From a bacterium (GTDB lineage Bacteria; Patescibacteriota; Dojkabacteria; B142; OLB20), in the NCBI GenBank assembly GCA_021463645.1, contig JAJTYI010000001.1, forward strand, positions 33,803 through 97,802: 64,000 bases of DNA. The letters run 5' to 3'. A program made the position numbers and the translations under genes. Shown in pieces: positions 27,750 to 36,143 of this stretch. The notes beneath the pieces were generated by a model. The model ran no database searches and was not told the origin of the DNA. It saw only the letters and a program-made list of their open reading frames with translations. The first letter of the stretch is position 1. Each line of letters begins with the position of its first letter.

Positions 27750-30029
27750 TTAACCTTGTGTAACATTTGGTCCTGTATTTTGATTATTATTAGTTATATT
27801 ACCTTGAGGATAATTATATCCCCCTTGATTAGTGTTTGGATATTGATTTGTAGGTGTCTGATTTGAATTTGCAGGTTGGGTGTTATATGCAATATTCGGC
27901 GGATATTGTGGATTCGTCACAGTTCCATTCATAGGTGCTGGATTTTGCGAATACATAGGTTGTATATTTTTAGGAGCGGTGTTTGGGGTAGGCGTGAAAT
28001 TACCTCCTGTATTCTGACTAACACCAGGTTGACCTTGATTTATATAACGGGATTCTGAGGCATTACTTGCAGGTGAATTTTGAGCAACATTAGGGTTGCC
28101 TGGAGTTGTAGGGTTTTGAGTATTCGACATCTCTTCAGAAATTGGAATTTGTAATTTCTCCAATCTTTGTTTCTCAGCTTTTTGAAGATTTGCATCTTCC
28201 ATAGCCCTCATCTCTCTCGGATTTGTTGTTATAAGATTATGCTCATTTTCACTCGCGATAACTTGAATACCAACATGATTATTTCCCGCAAAGAAAATAC
28301 CTTCACCAATTCCAGCAGTTAGTAAATATTGCTTTTCTCCCATAGATAGGTAGAAGACTTTTTGAAGCTTATCTGCTGCCGCTGTACTTTGTTTCAATAG
28401 TACTTGAATTGAAGAGTTGGTTACCACTGCTCTTCCATAATCTGTTCCAAGGAAGTCCTCTACGTCTTGCGTAATTGTTGTCAAACCAAGTGCATATTTT
28501 CTAGCCCTTTTTGCTATAGAGTGTAAGAACCTAGCACCCTCTTCAAATTGCATCATCCACCAAGCCTCATCAATAATTAATAATCGCTCTCTTCTGTCTT
28601 TTTTAACTCTAGTCCAGATGTAATCCAACATTAGATACATAGCGATCGGTCTTAAATCTTCAGCCAAATCTCTAATACTAAAGACAGTGAATGAATTTTT
28701 AATTTCAATGTTTGTTTTTTGGTCAAAAATACCTGCTGAACTACCTTTTATGTATTTTTCAATCTTTTGTGCAAGAACATGTGCTTCATTTTCAGCCATT
28801 GCCATCAATACTTTGTACAAGTCCTCGAGCAGTGGTGGTTCTCTTCTTTGGGTTGCAGGGTCAGGGGTTATGCCTTTTTCTTTATAGGTTAATATTAAAG
28901 CCCTATCTAAGATGGAACTCTCGATAGAAGTCAGCGTTCCACCAACCATCAGCCTGATTAAACCATTTAATAGTAGAATTTTGAATCTCAATTCGTCTTC
29001 GTCTTTATCATAAATACCCGAAAGTTCGAATGGATTAAGTTTCTGACCACCATCTTGAGAGAATGAGATATAATCACCACCAGCTGTAAGACATAATTTC
29101 TCATATTCTTTTTCAGGATCGATAATGATAATCTGTGTTCCCATCATCAAACTTCTGATGGCTTCAAGTTTGACCATATAACTTTTTCCCGCTCCGGATG
29201 TAGCGAAAACTACCATATTTGCATTTGGCATCTGGAATCTATCGAAAATAATCAGACTTTTATTGTGTTTATTAATTCCGTAGAGGATTCCATCATCCAT
29301 CGTCAGCTCGGAAGATACAAATGGAAATGTCGTTGCTAGAGAAGTTGTATCCATATTCCTCGTAAGGTAGATTTTGTCCATACCCAATGGCATACTGGTC
29401 ACGAATCCTTGTTCTTGTTGAAGTGATGCAATTTTAGTAATTACCCCAAGTGCTGATAAAGTAGACTCAACGTTTCTAGAGATTTTCTCTAGTTCTTGGA
29501 GATTAGTAGACCTGATAGTTATATATAGTGCAAAATGGAAGAACTTTTCATTTCCACTAGCAATCGCTTGTTGTAGCTCTTCTGCATCTTTTAGTGTAAT
29601 TTTGATATTTGGATCAGGGATTTTACCTGCTTCAACATCGATGTTTAAAGAAGCTTGCAACTCAGCAATTTTTCTTTTTAATCTAGATAAAATCAGTGCT
29701 GAATCAACAGGATAATAAAAAGAGCTGATTGTAAGGGGTCTCTCGAAGTTGATAAGTGGTGATAACCAATTTGCACTAACCCATCTTGGGAATCCAGTTG
29801 CAAAAAATGTACGGAAGTACTTACCTCCGATAAGCATATGGTTGAAATCGATTTCAATCGCCGGTGGAGCTATAATGTCTTTGACATCCACAACTGCCTT
29901 GGAAAAATCATCAACTGCAGCCTGCTCTAGTTGATTCTGATCAGGAGCTCCCACCATTTGAACTTGTGGAGCGTTGCTTTTCTGACCTTTTTTTAATTTA
30001 TCAAATATTTTAAGTTTTGGTATTTTCAT
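27750..30029 (-). CDS. virB4: VirB4/TraC-type type IV secretion ATPase (Gram-positive PrgJ/TcpF-like) with a 129-aa N/Q/P/T-rich C-terminal tail.
   Basis: Walker A VVFATSGAGKSY, Walker B RLLIIDEAWWMM, the N-terminal VKDIIAPPAIEIDFNHMLIGGKYFRTFF pattern and TTITQDVEDF. The tail spans 27753-28139. Confidence 0.85.
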   Translation of the reverse strand: MKIPKLKIFDKLKKGQKSNAPQVQMVGAPDQNQLEQAAVDDFSKAVVDVKDIIAPPAIEIDFNHMLIGGKYFRTFFATGFPRWVSANWLSPLINFERPLTISSFYYPVDSALILSRLKRKIAELQASLNIDVEAGKIPDPNIKITLKDAEELQQAIASGNEKFFHFALYITIRSTNLQELEKISRNVESTLSALGVITKIASLQQEQGFVTSMPLGMDKIYLTRNMDTTSLATTFPFVSSELTMDDGILYGINKHNKSLIIFDRFQMPNANMVVFATSGAGKSYMVKLEAIRSLMMGTQIIIIDPEKEYEKLCLTAGGDYISFSQDGGQKLNPFELSGIYDKDEDELRFKILLLNGLIRLMVGGTLTSIESSILDRALILTYKEKGITPDPATQRREPPLLEDLYKVLMAMAENEAHVLAQKIEKYIKGSSAGIFDQKTNIEIKNSFTVFSIRDLAEDLRPIAMYLMLDYIWTRVKKDRRERLLIIDEAWWMMQFEEGARFLHSIAKRARKYALGLTTITQDVEDFLGTDYGRAVVTNSSIQVLLKQSTAAADKLQKVFYLSMGEKQYLLTAGIGEGIFFAGNNHVGIQVIASENEHNLITTNPREMRAMEDANLQKAEKQRLEKLQIPISEEMSNTQNPTTPGNPNVAQNSPASNASESRYINQGQPGVSQNTGGNFTPTPNTAPKNIQPMYSQNPAPMNGTVTNPQYPPNIAYNTQPANSNQTPTNQYPNTNQGGYNYPQGNITNNNQNTGPNVTQG

Positions 30030-30693
30030 CCGCTTTAAATGAAGTATATTTAGTTGTAGCCAACTCCAAATTCTTCGCCCCGATTTTGTCAGGATCGTAC
30101 ATAGAATAATAAAGTCTTACAAGTTGTTCGTTATTTAACTGCCAAGTCTCAATCCCCATTTTCTTAAATTGTTTAAATACATGATCACGCTTCGGATATA
30201 AATTGATTTTAGCTTTATCGAAAATTGCTTTACGATTTGTAATTTGAATTCTTTTTCCAAATATTTGCTTAACTATTCCTGTCCTTTGAACTTCTGCAGA
30301 AATCTCTGGTATTACAATGAAAAATCTTTTATCCAAAACTTCTCTATTGTATGTTAGATTTTTTATAAATTGTAAGTAGATTTCAATTTGTCGAATTAAT
30401 GCCTTCGATGTCTGTTGTTGTTTGAATGATGTAAGTTTTTCAACATAAGCAGTCAAATCGGAACGTTCTGTTAAAATTACGACCTGCATTTGGAAATTTA
30501 GAGAATTTAACATTCCTGCGAACATCTTTATTTTCGCGTCTTGTTCCTCCTCGGATAAAAGATCAAAGTTAACGGCACCAGTTTCGATAACCAAAGATAC
30601 TCTTCCATCTTTCAATAGAACTAAATCATCCCTGATATCTTCGATTTCTAGATGATCTTGTGTACTTATTTTTGAATTTGAAACTATTCCCAT
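30010..30693 (-). CDS. Soluble protein resembling a VirB4/TrbE N-terminal domain (T4SS accessory).
   Basis: The LEIEDIRDDLVLLKDGRVSLVIETGAVNFDLLSEEEQDAKIKMFAGMLNSLNFQMQVVI pattern resembles the N-terminal region of VirB4/TraC proteins. It overlaps virB4 by 20 nt. Confidence 0.5.
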   Translation of the reverse strand: MGIVSNSKISTQDHLEIEDIRDDLVLLKDGRVSLVIETGAVNFDLLSEEEQDAKIKMFAGMLNSLNFQMQVVILTERSDLTAYVEKLTSFKQQQTSKALIRQIEIYLQFIKNLTYNREVLDKRFFIVIPEISAEVQRTGIVKQIFGKRIQITNRKAIFDKAKINLYPKRDHVFKQFKKMGIETWQLNNEQLVRLYYSMYDPDKIGAKNLELATTKYTSFKADENTKT

Positions 30694-31490
30694 TATTTAG
30701 CTTTAAACTTATAAAGAATGTCTTGGTTATCTTTTAGATTTATTCTGTAATACTCAAAGACTAATTTAGGTGCTGCAATGCTAATAAAGTAAACACCTGG
30801 ACTTAGAGCCGTATCTAAATTAAATTGTCCTTTATCATCTGTAGTTACTTCGTTGATAAATTCACCGCTCTCAGAGTTTACACTAACTAACGCACCTTGT
30901 ACTGGATTTTCTTTATTATCGACAACAAATCCTTTGATAAATATTGTTTTTGATGAGCTGGCTTGTTCTTTTGTAGGTGTAAATGTATTTACTGTATTCT
31001 CGGATGTTTGAGTTCCGAACATCTCTTGTTCAATTTGTTTTAATCTTAATTCCTCTTCTCTGTCTGCAACAGTAAACTCTTTTTGAACCTCAAACTTTGT
31101 AAGTGGTGCTATAGAAGCTCGAATACGGCCTTCTTTTTTTACTTTCTCTAATGTTTCTTCTTTTGTTCTTTTCACTTCTTCATGAAAAACATCTGGAACA
31201 ACTCCCGTTTTTTTCCAAACTCGCTCCTGGGAAGTAAACATTGCAACAATAAAATTAGTCAACCACACAGAAGAATATTGACCATTAATTTTTATCAGAG
31301 AAAGAAAAATCCCTAATATTACTGCGATTATAATTAATACAACTCTCAGAATTCCAGGTAAAGGTGTGAAATATATTCCCAATGCTATCATCAGCAAAGT
31401 CGCAAGATAGGCAAACTGTTTAACTGAGAGAGCACCAAAGAGTTTGAACTCTACTTCCATAATGTTTTGTGGTACTGCGTGTCTCTCCAT
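30693..31490 (-). CDS. PrgI-family (VirB3-like) membrane protein fused to a C-terminal carboxypeptidase-regulatory-like beta-sandwich.
   Basis: VPQNIMEVEFKLFGALSVKQFAYLATLLMIALGIYF plus a second TM matches the PrgI pattern. The C-terminal IKGFVVDNKENPVQGALVSVNS...TDDKGQFNL..LSPGVYFISI is CarboxypepD_reg-like. Confidence 0.7.
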   Translation of the reverse strand: MERHAVPQNIMEVEFKLFGALSVKQFAYLATLLMIALGIYFTPLPGILRVVLIIIAVILGIFLSLIKINGQYSSVWLTNFIVAMFTSQERVWKKTGVVPDVFHEEVKRTKEETLEKVKKEGRIRASIAPLTKFEVQKEFTVADREEELRLKQIEQEMFGTQTSENTVNTFTPTKEQASSSKTIFIKGFVVDNKENPVQGALVSVNSESGEFINEVTTDDKGQFNLDTALSPGVYFISIAAPKLVFEYYRINLKDNQDILYKFKAK

Positions 31491-31958
31491 TTATTTGATA
31501 CTTTTTATAACAAAATCAACCGAACCACCTGGTGTTGGTACGGTTACTTTATCACCTTTCTTTTTCCCTGATAGTGATTTCCCCAAAGGTGAATCCAAGG
31601 AAATTTTTCTTTCTGTAGGATCAGCTTCGTTATGTCCAACTATGATGTATTCCACATCTGCTCCTCCATCAGACTTTTGAATTGTAACTCTTCTTCCTAA
31701 ATCAACTACTCCAGAATTTGATTTAGTTGAAATTTCAGCATTTGATAATAATTCTTTTAGTTGATTTATTCGATTTTCGTTAAATTCCTTTGATTCAATA
31801 GCTGACTTATATGCAGCATTTTCCGATAAATCTCCTTGTTGTCTAGCTTTCTCGATCTCGTCTGCAATTTTAGTTCGAACTATTGTCTCCCTTTCTTCTA
31901 TTTCAGAAACAATTTTATCGTAACCTTCTTGTGTAAAAATTTGTTTTGGATTATTCAT
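31491..31958 (-). CDS. greA: Transcription elongation factor GreA.
   Basis: QEGYDKIVSEIE...QGDLSENAAYKSA coiled-coil region plus a C-terminal FKBP-like domain. 155 aa. Confidence 0.9.
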   Translation of the reverse strand: MNNPKQIFTQEGYDKIVSEIEERETIVRTKIADEIEKARQQGDLSENAAYKSAIESKEFNENRINQLKELLSNAEISTKSNSGVVDLGRRVTIQKSDGGADVEYIIVGHNEADPTERKISLDSPLGKSLSGKKKGDKVTVPTPGGSVDFVIKSIK

Positions 31959-31959
31959 A

Positions 31960-34900
31960 TTATTTTTTTAATTCAAACTTAAAAATCTTATCTCCTGTAA
32001 GAACACCAGAATATATGTATTTATTATTATCTTTAATAAAATCAGTGCCTTCCGGAGTTACTTCGAATTCTGGGTCAAATGCAATCTCTAAATCATAATT
32101 GCTCTCTATTCCAGGATTCTTGTTTAATCTTAACATAAAAATCGTTTGTTTTGTTTCCGGATTTGCGAATTGACTAGAAGTAAAGCTCATCCCATAAGAT
32201 AAATCATCATCCTCTAAATAGATATTACAAGTCTTATCTGTTGAATAAGTTGTTGATACTAACTCTGGGGCTACATCGATATTTTGAATATTTTGAGCAC
32301 CACCATTTACACACAAATATCCATTTTGTAAATTATCAACATTATTCAACCTCAAATTGAGTGTAGACTTTGCAATATAGTCTGCATCGATATTGATAGC
32401 ACCAGATATTGTCGAAATCGGGTACTTAATCAAATCGCTTTTTGCATCTGGATTGTGATTCATTCCAAAGAATATTTCAGCATTAGGCGAGTAGCCAACA
32501 CCAGTAATCGACCTAAGAAATGATTCAAACTCTGGGTTATTTGAATAGTAGAGCATATCTTTCGTATTATGTGAATATGCCAATGTATTCACTATGTCGT
32601 TTATATTGTTATTAAGATTATTAAACGCATCAGCTATATTTTTTGCATATAAATTCATAATAATCTCATTCCTGGCAATTAAGTCATTTGAATTGTTTAA
32701 CAGACTAATGTTATTCAGCAAATTATCATCATTAAAATTAAGTTGTCGGAAATTAATATCACCTTGGTTTTGCATTGAATTACTCAATGTACCGACATTT
32801 GTGGAGATGACTAAGTCAATATTAGATTTCGTGTTTAGTTCGAAATTTCTTTCAATTACTCTTAAGAAAAGATTCGGTTCGGAAATATTGTATAAATCCT
32901 GAAAGACAATATTCTCTGCGCTAACTTCCTTGCTTGAAACTAAATTTATAGAAGAAACCACATCACTTGAAACCACATCCTTGTTTAATACAGGCGTTTT
33001 GAGGATTTCTGTATTCAATGTCTTTAATGTCCCTTGGTCTATGGTGAAATTGATATAACCAACAATAGCACCACCAGAGCTACTATACCTCGTATTGTCT
33101 TGAACAACTACTAAATAATTTATAGGCTTTTCTCGCCCCATTAGTAATGGAAGATTATTATACTGATTTGCAATGAATTGCGAGGCTTTAAATTTCTCAT
33201 CTAAATCAAGCATTTTTTCTGATGTATTTTGTATTAATTCTGCAGGAAGTCTTTGAGAGTATACGTATGCTTCTTCTTTTGATGAGGAAATCCGTCCTAA
33301 ACTATCTTCAATGATTCCTCTTTGAGCATACATAGTATCCAACTCTTCTTTGAAGTTTTCACTGTCATTCGTACTTAGCAATCTGTCCTCACCAAATCTG
33401 TATACAATACTCGGATTTGAATTATTAATAAATGTTTGCATAGGAATATATGCGTTCAATAAATCGGTATACCCTTCTGAGTAATCTATTGAGCTCGCAA
33501 GATATTTCTGAGTAGAACTATATAAATCTTCTTTATTTAACAATGAAAACAAATACTGTAAATCCTCAACTCTTGCCTGTGCTGACTCTAAGTTATCTTT
33601 AAGTTTAAGATTATTATCACTAGCTTCTACGAAGTTTAGGCTGGATACGTTTTCAATTACTCGATCATAATAAACCCTCGTGAAAAAAATATTTCTACTT
33701 AAACTAAACAGCGGAGAAATCATCATAAAATATATAACAGCAAATCCCGTGATTAGAAACAATGTTACAACGAAATCGGTAACCGTGACGTTTTTTAGGA
33801 AAAATATTCTTCTACTAAATCCAAATAAAATATCATGAAGTGAAGTGTCAATTTTTTGTAGTATTGATTGTTTTTCCTTAGGTTTCTTGGATGATTTGTT
33901 GTTTACGTTCGCCTGTATCATGTTCCCTGTTCTTGCCATATCAAGCTTTTTCCTTTCTGCAATTAATTTCGAGATCGCATCACCATCACCTCCTTCATTT
34001 TCAGCAACGAAAAAGAAATCACGAATTTTTTCAGACATGTTCTTCGTATTTGATACTTTCAATGAAGCGTCCTCTTTAAGTGCTTTCTCAATTATTAAAA
34101 GTTCTTGAATATACTCAATAGTCTGAATCAATGATCTATCAAACTCAATACGAGGTCTCCACCCAATCGTAACCAAGCTCTCAGCAGGTTTATACAATAT
34201 TAATGAAGGATATTGGTCGTCATCACTATCAAATCGTATCTCTCTGGCTGTAGGTAATAATTCTAATAGTTTATATGCAATTGAAAGTATTGTGACTTCT
34301 TCTGGATTAGCTAATGTGAATATTTTTCCTTTTGTACTCGCTGAAAATTGCGCTTTCAACACACCATAAGCTGCATCAAGATAATGAATGTAGTAATTAG
34401 CTTCTAATCCATCGCCAGGTACTTTCAAGTCTTTTCCTTCAAGCCCATTTCTAATAAGCTTGATGAGACTAGAATTTTGATCGAATTCTGTACCTCGGCC
34501 AATTATTTCACCTAGTCTTAATATTCTGGCATTTATCCCAACTCTTTGGATATATTCTTGAACCAAACTTTCGGAGTATCTTTGAATCTCAAGCTCCATA
34601 TATTGTGAATGGTTCGAAGTACTATTCAGCCCGTAATTGTAGTCAAGATGCGTATTTGAAATATTTAATTGATGAGCTTTTATTGAAGTTGTTAAAAGAA
34701 ATTTGGAATCGAATTTTGAACATAAATCCAAAATTGAATCCAAATAGTTTGAATTTTGTAGGTACTTTTGAGTAGAGATTTTTTCTTTAAGGTGTGTAGA
34801 TTTGTGTTCAAAATAAAACACATAATCTAGCCTTCGTAAATCGAGACCTAAGGTATTAATCGCAGAGAAATTTAGAACTGTAAGATTTTTGTACTTAACT

Positions 34901-35070
34901 AGTGGATCAAGAAGCTTACGAGATGCGTTGCTTTCACTGTCAATGATAATCACGTAACCACCCTGTTCCAGCAAGGATCGTGCAATCTCAACACCAAGTA
35001 CATTCGCACCTTTAACGATAATAGAGGTAGGAAACCTCACTGAACCATGTAATTTTTTAACTACATTCAT
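31960..35070 (-). CDS. 1036-aa fusion: degenerate NAD-epimerase/dehydratase-like (extended SDR) domain + TM helix + large DUF4012-like extracytoplasmic domain.
   Basis: Residues 1-330 follow the extended-SDR layout, but the Gly motif reads VKGANVLG and the YxxxK position reads Y157-MEL-E161. A TM lies at about residues 432-455. INYLVVVQDNTRYSSSGGAIVGYINFTIDQGTL (residues 650-682) resembles the DUF4012 signature. Confidence 0.65.
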   Translation of the reverse strand: MNVVKKLHGSVRFPTSIIVKGANVLGVEIARSLLEQGGYVIIIDSESNASRKLLDPLVKYKNLTVLNFSAINTLGLDLRRLDYVFYFEHKSTHLKEKISTQKYLQNSNYLDSILDLCSKFDSKFLLTTSIKAHQLNISNTHLDYNYGLNSTSNHSQYMELEIQRYSESLVQEYIQRVGINARILRLGEIIGRGTEFDQNSSLIKLIRNGLEGKDLKVPGDGLEANYYIHYLDAAYGVLKAQFSASTKGKIFTLANPEEVTILSIAYKLLELLPTAREIRFDSDDDQYPSLILYKPAESLVTIGWRPRIEFDRSLIQTIEYIQELLIIEKALKEDASLKVSNTKNMSEKIRDFFFVAENEGGDGDAISKLIAERKKLDMARTGNMIQANVNNKSSKKPKEKQSILQKIDTSLHDILFGFSRRIFFLKNVTVTDFVVTLFLITGFAVIYFMMISPLFSLSRNIFFTRVYYDRVIENVSSLNFVEASDNNLKLKDNLESAQARVEDLQYLFSLLNKEDLYSSTQKYLASSIDYSEGYTDLLNAYIPMQTFINNSNPSIVYRFGEDRLLSTNDSENFKEELDTMYAQRGIIEDSLGRISSSKEEAYVYSQRLPAELIQNTSEKMLDLDEKFKASQFIANQYNNLPLLMGREKPINYLVVVQDNTRYSSSGGAIVGYINFTIDQGTLKTLNTEILKTPVLNKDVVSSDVVSSINLVSSKEVSAENIVFQDLYNISEPNLFLRVIERNFELNTKSNIDLVISTNVGTLSNSMQNQGDINFRQLNFNDDNLLNNISLLNNSNDLIARNEIIMNLYAKNIADAFNNLNNNINDIVNTLAYSHNTKDMLYYSNNPEFESFLRSITGVGYSPNAEIFFGMNHNPDAKSDLIKYPISTISGAINIDADYIAKSTLNLRLNNVDNLQNGYLCVNGGAQNIQNIDVAPELVSTTYSTDKTCNIYLEDDDLSYGMSFTSSQFANPETKQTIFMLRLNKNPGIESNYDLEIAFDPEFEVTPEGTDFIKDNNKYIYSGVLTGDKIFKFELKK

Positions 35071-35780
35071 TGTTGGGCAGTTAATTCAACTGGTTTTGCA
35101 AATAAATTAACCTCTAAACTCAACTCTACATCTTTTAACTTGTCTCTTTCAGACTGTTCTGTAGGTAATATTTCAATCTCGAGTGTATCAAAACCTTTTT
35201 TACTAAATGTTAAGATATGTGTACTGTCAATGCCTATGGGAATTGACCTTAAAGGTGTTTTACCTATATCTCTTCCGTCTAGTTTAACATCTACATCATC
35301 CACTGTCGAAAGTATATCTAAGGTTGGTTCAACGCCTTTTGTGAAGCTCTTTTTAGCTGTTAAGATGTGACCTTCAGAGAATAATGGCGAAGGACCTAGG
35401 TCATAACCAATAACAACATCAACATCCTTTTCGAAGTTTATATTTCTCTCAAATTCTGAGTAAAAACCATCGTTATTAGGTCGAACAATCTTAATATTAT
35501 GTTCCCCTGGTTCTATTGGATAAACCTCGAGAAATGACTCTTGATCAGACGTTACACCTGCAGAATTACCATCTACGAATACTTCCAATTCTCCAGAGAA
35601 AGCCTTCACTTTCAAGCCACTATAACTATCTCTTGAATCAATACCAAATATATTAATCCACTCAAAGTTCCATGATTGCCATGGCGACCAAAATGCTAAT
35701 AAAATTAGTGATAAAATTAAGAGTGAAATTCTAGTAACTTTGCGCATTTTCAATAAAAAACTAATAGGAAAACCTATCAA
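35067..35780 (-). CDS. Membrane-anchored protein with two PEGA-like domains.
   Basis: Signal anchor ISLLILSLILLAFW. LEVFVDGNSAGVT and VDVKLDGRDIGKTPL...HILTFSKKGFDTLEIEI match PEGA patterns. The likely start is M12 (nt 35747). It overlaps the next gene by 4 nt. Confidence 0.65.
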   Translation of the reverse strand: MIGFPISFLLKMRKVTRISLLILSLILLAFWSPWQSWNFEWINIFGIDSRDSYSGLKVKAFSGELEVFVDGNSAGVTSDQESFLEVYPIEPGEHNIKIVRPNNDGFYSEFERNINFEKDVDVVIGYDLGPSPLFSEGHILTAKKSFTKGVEPTLDILSTVDDVDVKLDGRDIGKTPLRSIPIGIDSTHILTFSKKGFDTLEIEILPTEQSERDKLKDVELSLEVNLFAKPVELTAQQ

Positions 35781-35858: not shown

Positions 35859-36143
35859 TTAGTCAACTGTGCCAGATGGTTTCACTGGTAGTACTTTCAG
35901 GGATTCAAGAAGTAAAGCCTGATTACCGTATGGAGTATTAACAATTTTATATGTGTTTCTTTTTGAAGCATATGTACCAACAACAACTATTACATCACCT
36001 TGAAATAAGTCTACAAAATCATCTTCAATCACATGACCATTCTCCCATTTAGGTACTCTTAAATTAACTGACATTTCTGCGGGTTCATTTGGGCCAAATA
36101 TACTTAATTCAACTGATTTTAAAAAACTAGGAAGTTCAGACAT
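35859..36143 (-). CDS. Hypothetical 94-aa protein.
   Basis: ORF lying between rpsI and the PEGA operon. No motif was recognised. Confidence 0.4.
   Translation of the reverse strand: MSELPSFLKSVELSIFGPNEPAEMSVNLRVPKWENGHVIEDDFVDLFQGDVIVVVGTYASKRNTYKIVNTPYGNQALLLESLKVLPVKPSGTVD

Follow-up and report, generated by a model that had tools for sequence, protein, structure and literature searches.

A stretch of 64,000 nucleotides from a bacterium of the Dojkabacteria lineage (contig JAJTYI010000001.1, positions 33,803 to 97,802; the whole stretch is called the window here) carries on its minus strand a gene for a membrane protein of 1036 residues, in which a domain with the extended short-chain dehydrogenase/reductase (SDR) fold, predicted to be non-catalytic, is joined through a linker and one transmembrane (TM) helix to an ectodomain of the DUF4012 family. 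This SDR-TM-DUF4012 open reading frame (ORF) is a genuine gene conserved across Dojkabacteria, and its parts are as follows.

31960..35070, minus strand: whole gene of the bitopic membrane protein (pseudo-SDR, TM helix, DUF4012 ectodomain; 1036 residues), one intact ORF with more than 110 full-length homologues and 67 genome loci
34081..35049, minus strand: extended-SDR (epimerase/dehydratase) fold, predicted to be cytoplasmic and non-catalytic, residues ~8–330, from Pfam and from sequence and structure matches to UXS1
34993..35016, minus strand: degenerate TGxxGxxG dinucleotide-binding motif V19-K-G-A-N-V-L-G26 (VKGANVLG), residues 19–26, which aligns to TGGAGFVG of UXS1
34579..34602, minus strand: remnant of the YxxxK helix, YMELEIQR, residues 157–164, from the HMMER alignment to UXS1, the family columns and the sister lineages, which read E-A-K-R
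33889..33978, minus strand: conserved juxtamembrane helix in the linker, residues 365–394, from the family alignment and a full-length model (predicted local distance difference test, pLDDT, ~72)
33706..33777, minus strand: single TM helix, predicted to lie N-in/C-out, residues 432–455, hydropathy maximum 2.49
33142..33705, minus strand: predicted extracellular stalk of long helical hairpins, residues 456–643, from the AlphaFold2 model
32491..33141, minus strand: DUF4012 α/β core, residues 644–860, possibly of the LytR-CpsA-Psr (LCP)-like fold, from Pfam DUF4012 and invariant columns
31963..32490, minus strand: C-terminal β-sandwich, residues 861–1036, all-β in the AlphaFold2 model

The ORF was found on the strand, at the coordinates and with the length first given for it by the sequence-only reading, which had been made from the letters and a list of ORFs. 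A homologue search of 5.8 billion proteins returned 165 matches, the best 120 of which are nearly all about 1006–1067 residues long at 27–99% identity, and the named sources among these best 120 are Dojkabacteria. More than 110 homologues are full length (about 1006–1070 residues) and come from independent Candidatus Dojkabacteria assemblies; 112 aligned homologues at 27–88% identity keep the single ORF, one further match stands at 99%, and record DAOMOX010000002.1 contains the same gene at 99% identity. A genome scan with one genome per species gave 67 loci with a single reading frame throughout, among them the closed genomes CP129475.1 and AP024679.1. It had been considered that two genes might have been joined by a sequencing or assembly error near the linker; nothing was found in favour of this explanation, the linker itself carries conserved residues, and an ORF of about 1006–1070 residues is kept in the 112 proteins and 67 loci from independent projects, closed genomes included. 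The conservation of the full-length ORF rules the artefact out, and its probability is negligible.

The N-terminal domain was described from the outset as having an extended-SDR layout over residues 1–330, and this is borne out by family, sequence and structure comparisons alike. Pfam Epimerase (PF01370) matches residues 24–241 with E=7.6e-13 and 48.9 bits (cut-off 20.9), the nearest solved sequence is that of human UXS1 (UDP-xylose synthase, PDB 2b69, E=1.9e-15), and the AlphaFold2 model of the domain matches UXS1 in Foldseek with E=2.4e-14 and a TM-score of up to 0.84 (target-normalised), so that both the hidden Markov model (HMM) and the fold, with its Rossmann and C-terminal substrate-binding subdomains, place the domain in PF01370. 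The catalytic apparatus is another matter, since the TGxxGxxG motif and the YxxxK dyad are both absent in 117/117 aligned family members. The glycine motif of the family reads V/I-[RGKN]-G-x-[DNST]-x-L-[GA], and in these 117 members the residue counts are R42/G33/K23/N17 at position 20, D44/N37/S17/T15 at position 23 and G109/A8 at position 26; both pyrophosphate-contacting glycines are usually gone, and the degeneracy noted at first for the window protein therefore extends to the whole family. In the helix of the dyad, Y157 is invariant, residue 161 is Glu or Asp, and position 164 is always Arg or Lys. In the HMMER alignment to UXS1 (Y-D-E-G-K-R-V-A-E), two residues are inserted after Y157, and E161 pairs with the UXS1 Glu at K-2, a pairing also given by the sister lineages reading E-A-K-R; the Lys position is Q163 (Q115/E2), Y157 stands six residues ahead of it, and the K-4 position is occupied by Glu, Asp, Gln or Asn. 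The Y-M-E-L-E remarked on at residues 157–161 is thus present and the dyad is indeed broken, but the literal replacement of Lys by Glu at E161 was rejected on this alignment and on the sister-lineage sequences. The catalytic Ser/Thr position 129 mostly keeps its Ser (S98/A18/T1); despite Ser129, the Ser/Thr-Tyr-Lys set is incomplete, and the catalytic Glu120 of UXS1 corresponds to Lys or Arg at position 131 in the Dojkabacteria family. D44, the acidic residue at the end of β2, is invariant. In summary of the comparison with UXS1 (PDB 2b69, 4gll) and with the extended SDRs RmlB and GalE, the two-subdomain fold, the acidic residue at D44 and the Ser are shared, whereas the family protein has a degenerate TGxxGxxG, no Tyr at K-4, Gln163 for Lys and Lys/Arg131 for Glu120, and its SDR domain is anchored in the membrane as part of a fusion with an ectodomain.

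The loss of these motifs is not accompanied by a loss of conservation. Median identity to the window protein is 49% over the SDR domain and 20–25% over the ectodomain, the SDR domain being the most conserved region; because the motifs are lost in all members of what is yet the best-conserved region, the domain is a maintained pseudo-enzyme, evidently under strong purifying selection and with a function of a non-catalytic kind. Invariant and near-invariant residues cluster on helices 100–120 and 159–177, whose equivalents make up the four-helix interface of the dimer in canonical extended SDRs, and this location suggests that the domain may serve in dimerisation or docking. A different explanation is that the N-terminal domain has remained an enzyme, or acts as a sensor of nucleotide-sugar or NAD(P), with a non-canonical site, and links cytoplasmic precursor levels with the ectodomain. 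A retained site would fit the invariance of D44 and Y157, the Ser kept at position 129 in most members, the basic residue always present at position 164 and the well-conserved C-terminal substrate-binding subdomain; in SDRs the acidic residue at the D44 position binds the adenine ribose. Sister lineages with an intact GGAGFIG and Lys, and with Pfam Epimerase matches of up to 1e-29, point the same way. However, most members have other residues than the critical Gly at positions 20 and 23, and Asp, Asn, Ser or Thr at position 23 would clash with the pyrophosphate; Lys has become Gln, the Tyr is two residues out of register, and the sister lineages too are without a Tyr at K-4. The loss of the nucleotide-binding glycines weakens the sugar-nucleotide sensor idea for Dojkabacteria, and a retained enzyme or sensor appears rather improbable.

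The sister lineages make it possible to place these losses in order. The SDR-TM-DUF4012 architecture, at about 1012–1070 residues, is also found in records titled UBA1400, UBA1449 and CPR3 and in two labelled Pseudomonadales, where Pfam gives Epimerase at 1e-20 to 1e-29 and DUF4012 at 1e-24 to 1e-28. The UBA1400, UBA1449 and CPR3 proteins share length, domain order and the helix motif E-x-[KQ]-R-[FY]-x-E with those of Dojkabacteria, and differ from them in that GGAGFIG is intact, the Lys is present (E-A-K-R), the Tyr is at K-6 or absent, and the neighbouring genes are others. Since lineages with an intact glycine motif and Lys still have no Tyr at K-4, catalysis was probably compromised before the NAD motif and the Lys also disappeared in Dojkabacteria. 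When a profile of the DUF4012 core was searched exhaustively, 5,789 cluster representatives matched at E<=1e-3, 67 of them at E<=1e-30; among the best 150 matches the cytoplasmic N-terminal extension ranges from none to about 490 residues, many extensions being SDR-like, often only partly, and others unrecognisable. A word-indexed homologue search with the core of the sister-lineage locus L065 gave 3 matches only and did not widen the profile, as the exhaustive search did. Two relatives, at L058:5992-8382 and L059:2008-4398, have only 797 residues with an SDR-like domain; Pfam found no DUF4012 in the L058 protein, the one of the two that was checked, and the ectodomains of both may be truncated or very divergent. 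Many records with a gene of the Dojkabacteria or sister type (L005, L013, L015, L066, L068 and others) are titled 'uncultured Candidatus Saccharibacteria bacterium' or 'Pseudomonadales', titles that look like placeholder or wrong taxonomic labels.

Between the SDR domain and the membrane lies a linker with a conserved juxtamembrane helix, in which L369, E372 and R373 are nearly invariant and A387 is invariant, and with a K-rich stretch, NKSSKKPKEKQS, directly upstream of the TM helix. The sole strongly hydrophobic segment of the protein is at about residues 432–455 and occupies the same position in all members sampled, in agreement with the single TM helix that had been proposed after a K-rich linker. 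The 25 residues before this helix carry a net charge of +2.0, against -0.2 after it, and Lys plus Arg are more numerous before the helix in 73 members and fewer in 11; this charge bias supports an N-in/C-out topology, with the SDR domain predicted in the cytoplasm and the DUF4012 region outside.

The assignment of the C-terminal region of about 580 residues to DUF4012 was confirmed by the Pfam scan and by the family. In the whole window protein, Pfam DUF4012 (PF13196) matches residues 649–783 with E=5.3e-5 and 24.2 bits, below the 28-bit cut-off; the core scanned alone reaches 28.1 bits, and 31/31 family cores match with a best E of 7.7e-17, so that the family belongs clearly to DUF4012 and the window protein itself scores at the borderline. 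The Pfam model spans 144 of about 600 ectodomain residues. AlphaFold2 on residues 430–1036, with 112 family sequences, gave a pLDDT of 94.9 and a predicted template modelling score (pTM) of 0.89. In this model a helical stalk leads to an α/β core that opens with the strand-loop-hairpin I-N-Y-L-V-V-V-Q-D-N...G-G, where D658, G666 and G667 are invariant and N659 and G680 nearly so, and a β-sandwich with the invariant pair C920/C948, a probable disulfide, closes the chain. No solved structure matches the ectodomain model at E<=1e-3 in Foldseek, and the DUF4012-core profile against PDB sequences yields chance-level matches only (E>=0.22); weak Foldseek matches to the β-rich N-domain of M1 aminopeptidases appear to belong to the C-terminal β-sandwich. 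Short canonical DUF4012 proteins have the same TM-to-core spacing (~190 residues) and C-terminal extension, and residues 431–1036 are therefore predicted to be a whole canonical DUF4012 protein, with its TM anchor, ~190-residue stalk, (D/N)-N...G-G core and C-terminal domain. Compared with canonical members from Patescibacteria and Gram-positive bacteria (e.g., BL105A_0406 of B. longum), which share the TM helix, stalk, core signature and a C-terminal domain of ~170–200 residues, the window protein adds a cytoplasmic extension of about 430 residues with the pseudo-SDR and scores only 24–28 bits on the Pfam model, and the E and R of the canonical Q-N-N-x-E-x-R-x-T-G-G motif are not kept in Dojkabacteria. 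DUF4012 has been reported as a family shared by Candidate Phyla Radiation (CPR) and Gram-positive bacteria and as one of those setting these bacteria apart (PMC6744442).

Three weak, independent signals point to the LCP fold for the DUF4012 core. Foldseek matched the LCP structures 3nxh, 3pe5, 2xxq, 6uf3 and 6mps with probability 0.72–0.98, E of 0.012–0.1 and a TM-score of ~0.3; Pfam LytR_cpsA_psr gave a weak match in 2/31 family cores (E=0.0055); and hhalign against LCP gave P=6.6e-4 for a Dojkabacteria-centred core set that includes three sister-lineage cores and P=7.2e-4 for a second, separate set made up of DUF4012 relatives with E>1e-25, part of which still carry the SDR fusion, against 0.25–0.32 for a reversed LCP profile, 0.2–0.24 for an SDR profile and 0.01 for the best of 30 block shuffles. 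The hhalign alignments of both sets cover the same helix-strand-helix-Gly-strand element. A deeper LCP profile of 120 Bacilli sequences raised the hhalign probability from 14–23% to 27% only, and Pfam finds no LCP (PF03816) match for the window protein. LCP enzymes, which have been reported to come to light as partners of MreB, consist of an N-terminal TM helix followed by an accessory domain and a core outside the cell (PMC7831098); the DUF4012 protein matches the LCP glycopolymer transferases (TagT/U/V, Cps2A, LcpA) in this layout of N-terminal TM anchor, accessory domain, extracellular α/β core and optional C-terminal domain (PMC7831098). The likeness extends to gene neighbourhoods with glycan-synthesis genes and mreB, and the difference lies in the lack of a significant HMM match and of a recognisable Arg/Asp site for pyrophosphate-Mg2+: where LCP has G-R-S-D and P-R-D, the low-confidence hhalign alignments show G-G-x-x and residues other than Arg. 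Because this site is unrecognisable and a regular LCP protein is encoded in at least one Dojkabacteria genome (L070, E=6e-20), an LCP-like fold of the core, which we consider somewhat probable from these comparisons and the model, is taken as a lead and not as family membership.

The gene is flanked by two near-constant neighbours.

35067..35747, minus strand: membrane-anchored PEGA-domain partner gene, Pfam PEGA E=4.8e-9
31491..31958, minus strand: greA, 1-nt gap downstream of the focal gene, Pfam GreA_GreB N and C domains

Synteny was counted over 63 Dojkabacteria loci, the denominators being the loci with enough flank. The PEGA gene is directly upstream in 58/59 loci, and in the window its stop codon overlaps the focal start as ATGA, so that the focal gene is predicted to be translationally coupled to it; the partnership with PEGA that had been proposed is thus upheld. 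PEGA orthologues in distant genomes show 36–37% identity and align from M12; the ORF had been listed from a TTG at 35780, and M12 is the ATG at 35747. Just upstream of the PEGA gene, at 35814-35786, is the region's best promoter-like site, TTCCCA-17-TGnTATAAT (10/12), and promoter-like and terminator-like counts in the region are no higher than in shuffled sequence. The interval from rpsI to the PEGA gene contains an ORF of 94 residues (35859-36143, minus strand) that Pfam does not match and that was found only in a near-identical genome (L004), not in other relatives. Downstream, greA directly follows in 55/57 loci, even where all other neighbours differ; it is probably shared-operon housekeeping and not part of the function, and no functional reason was found for its near-constant linkage across Dojkabacteria.

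Beyond greA lie genes of a VirB4/PrgI module, and it could be proposed that the protein is a surface component or accessory of this type IV secretion system (T4SS)-like apparatus, co-transcribed with it. The window genes are on the same strand with gaps of 0–1 nt or overlaps, no obvious terminator-like site was found between the PEGA, focal, greA and VirB4-module genes, and the order PEGA-focal-greA-prgI-traC-virB4 recurs in 22/46 loci with enough flank. VirB4, however, is within 4 kb in only those 22/46 loci; in the other 24 the linkage is missing while PEGA and greA stay, and the housekeeping greA always stands between the focal gene and the secretion genes. The gene rpsI is upstream in 20/50 loci. 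The sister-lineage orthologues follow yidC-jag-rnhA and have no adjacent T4SS genes, VirB4 occurring once, about 5 kb upstream in L068; phmmer with the window PEGA and GreA proteins found no such neighbour at these loci. No similarity to any T4SS component was found in Pfam or NCBIfam. Because PEGA and greA keep 58/59 and 55/57 loci against 22/46 for VirB4, the conserved unit is PEGA plus the focal gene (plus greA), and the secretion module is a lineage-specific neighbour. The linkage to the VirB4 module, on which the earlier emphasis on co-transcription drew, thus gives no evidence of shared function; a functional linkage was rejected after the synteny count. The protein is most likely not part of the neighbouring secretion system, and a role as its component is quite unlikely.

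Glycan-related neighbours appear outside Dojkabacteria. In a CPR3 genome (L069:5314-5982), a gene of the Wzz (chain-length determinant) family stands 4 nt upstream of the SDR-DUF4012 gene, at the place of PEGA. Short DUF4012 genes occur in the orders GT2-GT2-DUF4012-mreB-GT4-(epimerase+NTP-transferase), BacA-NTP_transferase-DUF4012-mreB and GT2-GT2-GT2-DUF4012, GT denoting glycosyltransferase; in other Patescibacteria (L073, L074, L075), mreB is directly downstream of the short DUF4012 gene within clusters of GT2, GT4, BacA and NTP-transferase genes. In the exopolysaccharide cluster of Bifidobacterium longum, a DUF4012 gene is situated between the priming glycosyltransferase and wzz (PMC5412050). 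The epimerase genes in the short-DUF4012 glycan clusters offer a simple origin for the SDR-DUF4012 fusion, which would probably have arisen from a neighbouring sugar-nucleotide epimerase/dehydratase gene.

On these grounds, the reading that we prefer, and to which we give about an even chance, is that the protein is a factor for the assembly or attachment of envelope glycopolymers. It would be a bitopic protein of the cell envelope with the pseudo-SDR in the cytoplasm, a juxtamembrane and TM helix, and the DUF4012 ectodomain outside; the ectodomain, together with its PEGA partner, would act in the extracytoplasmic assembly of cell-wall or surface glycopolymers by handling, positioning or attaching a lipid-linked glycan, in a role analogous to that of TM-anchored LCP proteins, and the dead SDR domain would be a cytoplasmic structural, dimerisation or docking module and not an oxidoreductase. 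Catalysis would have been lost stepwise, the register of the Tyr first and then the glycine motif and Lys in Dojkabacteria. Several points weigh against this reading. We know of no DUF4012 protein with biochemical or genetic data; the Dojkabacteria gene has housekeeping and type IV secretion genes as its neighbours instead of glycan genes; none of the individual tests of the LCP likeness reaches significance (Foldseek E of at least 0.012, hhalign probability 23–27%), and the LCP Arg/Asp signature is not recognisable in the low-confidence hhalign alignments; and the invariant D44 may leave room for the binding of some nucleotide-like ligand.

The rapid divergence of the ectodomain (20–25% against a 49% median identity) could also mean that the protein is an adhesin at the surface, an S-layer anchor or a protein that interacts with hosts or phages, its ectodomain and the PEGA protein jointly making the contact with other cells or with the S-layer. 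Patescibacteria are often episymbionts, PEGA domains are typical of surface proteins, and the ectodomain ends in a C-terminal β-sandwich. Against this, D658, G666 and G667 are invariant across the DUF4012 superfamily, free-living Gram-positives included, a pattern more in keeping with a conserved site than with a binding surface that varies, and the DUF4012 relatives are embedded in glycan-synthesis clusters. Adhesion or anchoring is thus unlikely in our view, and glycopolymer assembly continues to be preferred. A bolder extension of the preferred reading can be formulated, in which DUF4012 would be an unrecognised, very divergent branch of the LCP fold with (D/N)-N...G-G in place of the arginine site, forming a second class of extracytoplasmic handlers or ligases of lipid-linked wall glycopolymers in monoderms and Patescibacteria, and in which the fused SDR-derived domain, NAD-binding in some lineages and purely structural in Dojkabacteria, would couple the ectodomain to sugar-nucleotide supply or to the cytoplasmic synthesis machinery; we regard this extension as doubtful.

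The domain architecture itself, which the sequence-only reading did not recognise, is catalogued automatically as Pfam PF01370+PF13196 and is widespread in Patescibacteria; NCBI names the homologues 'DUF4012 domain-containing protein' or 'NAD(P)-dependent oxidoreductase', and DUF4012 is already noted in the CPR literature. In the passages of PMC6744442 and PMC5412050 that concern DUF4012, the family is mentioned in passing and the SDR-DUF4012 fusion is not described. What appears to be new, in an incremental sense, is that the pseudo-enzyme state holds for the whole family and that SDR degeneration is graded, together with the model of the complete ectodomain, the lead towards LCP and the partnership with PEGA. 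The family offers a high-confidence model of the full DUF4012 ectodomain and a testable hypothesis, which draws support from the glycosyltransferase, BacA and mreB neighbourhoods, of a relationship between the core and LCP wall-glycopolymer transferases, while its natural series of SDR domains, from NAD-motif-intact to fully degenerate, illustrates how a sugar-nucleotide enzyme may have become a conserved non-catalytic module. Although ~5,800 cluster representatives match the core, we are aware of no DUF4012 member whose function is known or whose structure has been solved. The envelopes of Patescibacteria, which cannot be grown alone, are barely understood, and a protein present in 67 species-representative loci and regularly paired with a PEGA partner provides a reasonable entry point to envelope assembly.

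The secretion module of the window has some features of its own. VirB4 (27750-30693, minus strand) is encoded by two ORFs with a 20-nt overlap. The first, an N-terminal piece of 227 residues, weakly matches TrsD and the N-terminal part of VirB4, and the second is a 759-residue ATPase of the CD1110 type (E=3e-118); the same two-ORF split is present in a relative at 40% identity (L001), and the window VirB4 has a low-complexity C-terminal tail of about 170 residues rich in Q, N, P and T. The PrgI-family membrane protein (30693-31490, minus strand) ends in a CarboxypepD_reg-like β-sandwich (E=1.2e-9), which is unusual for a PrgI/VirB3-like protein.

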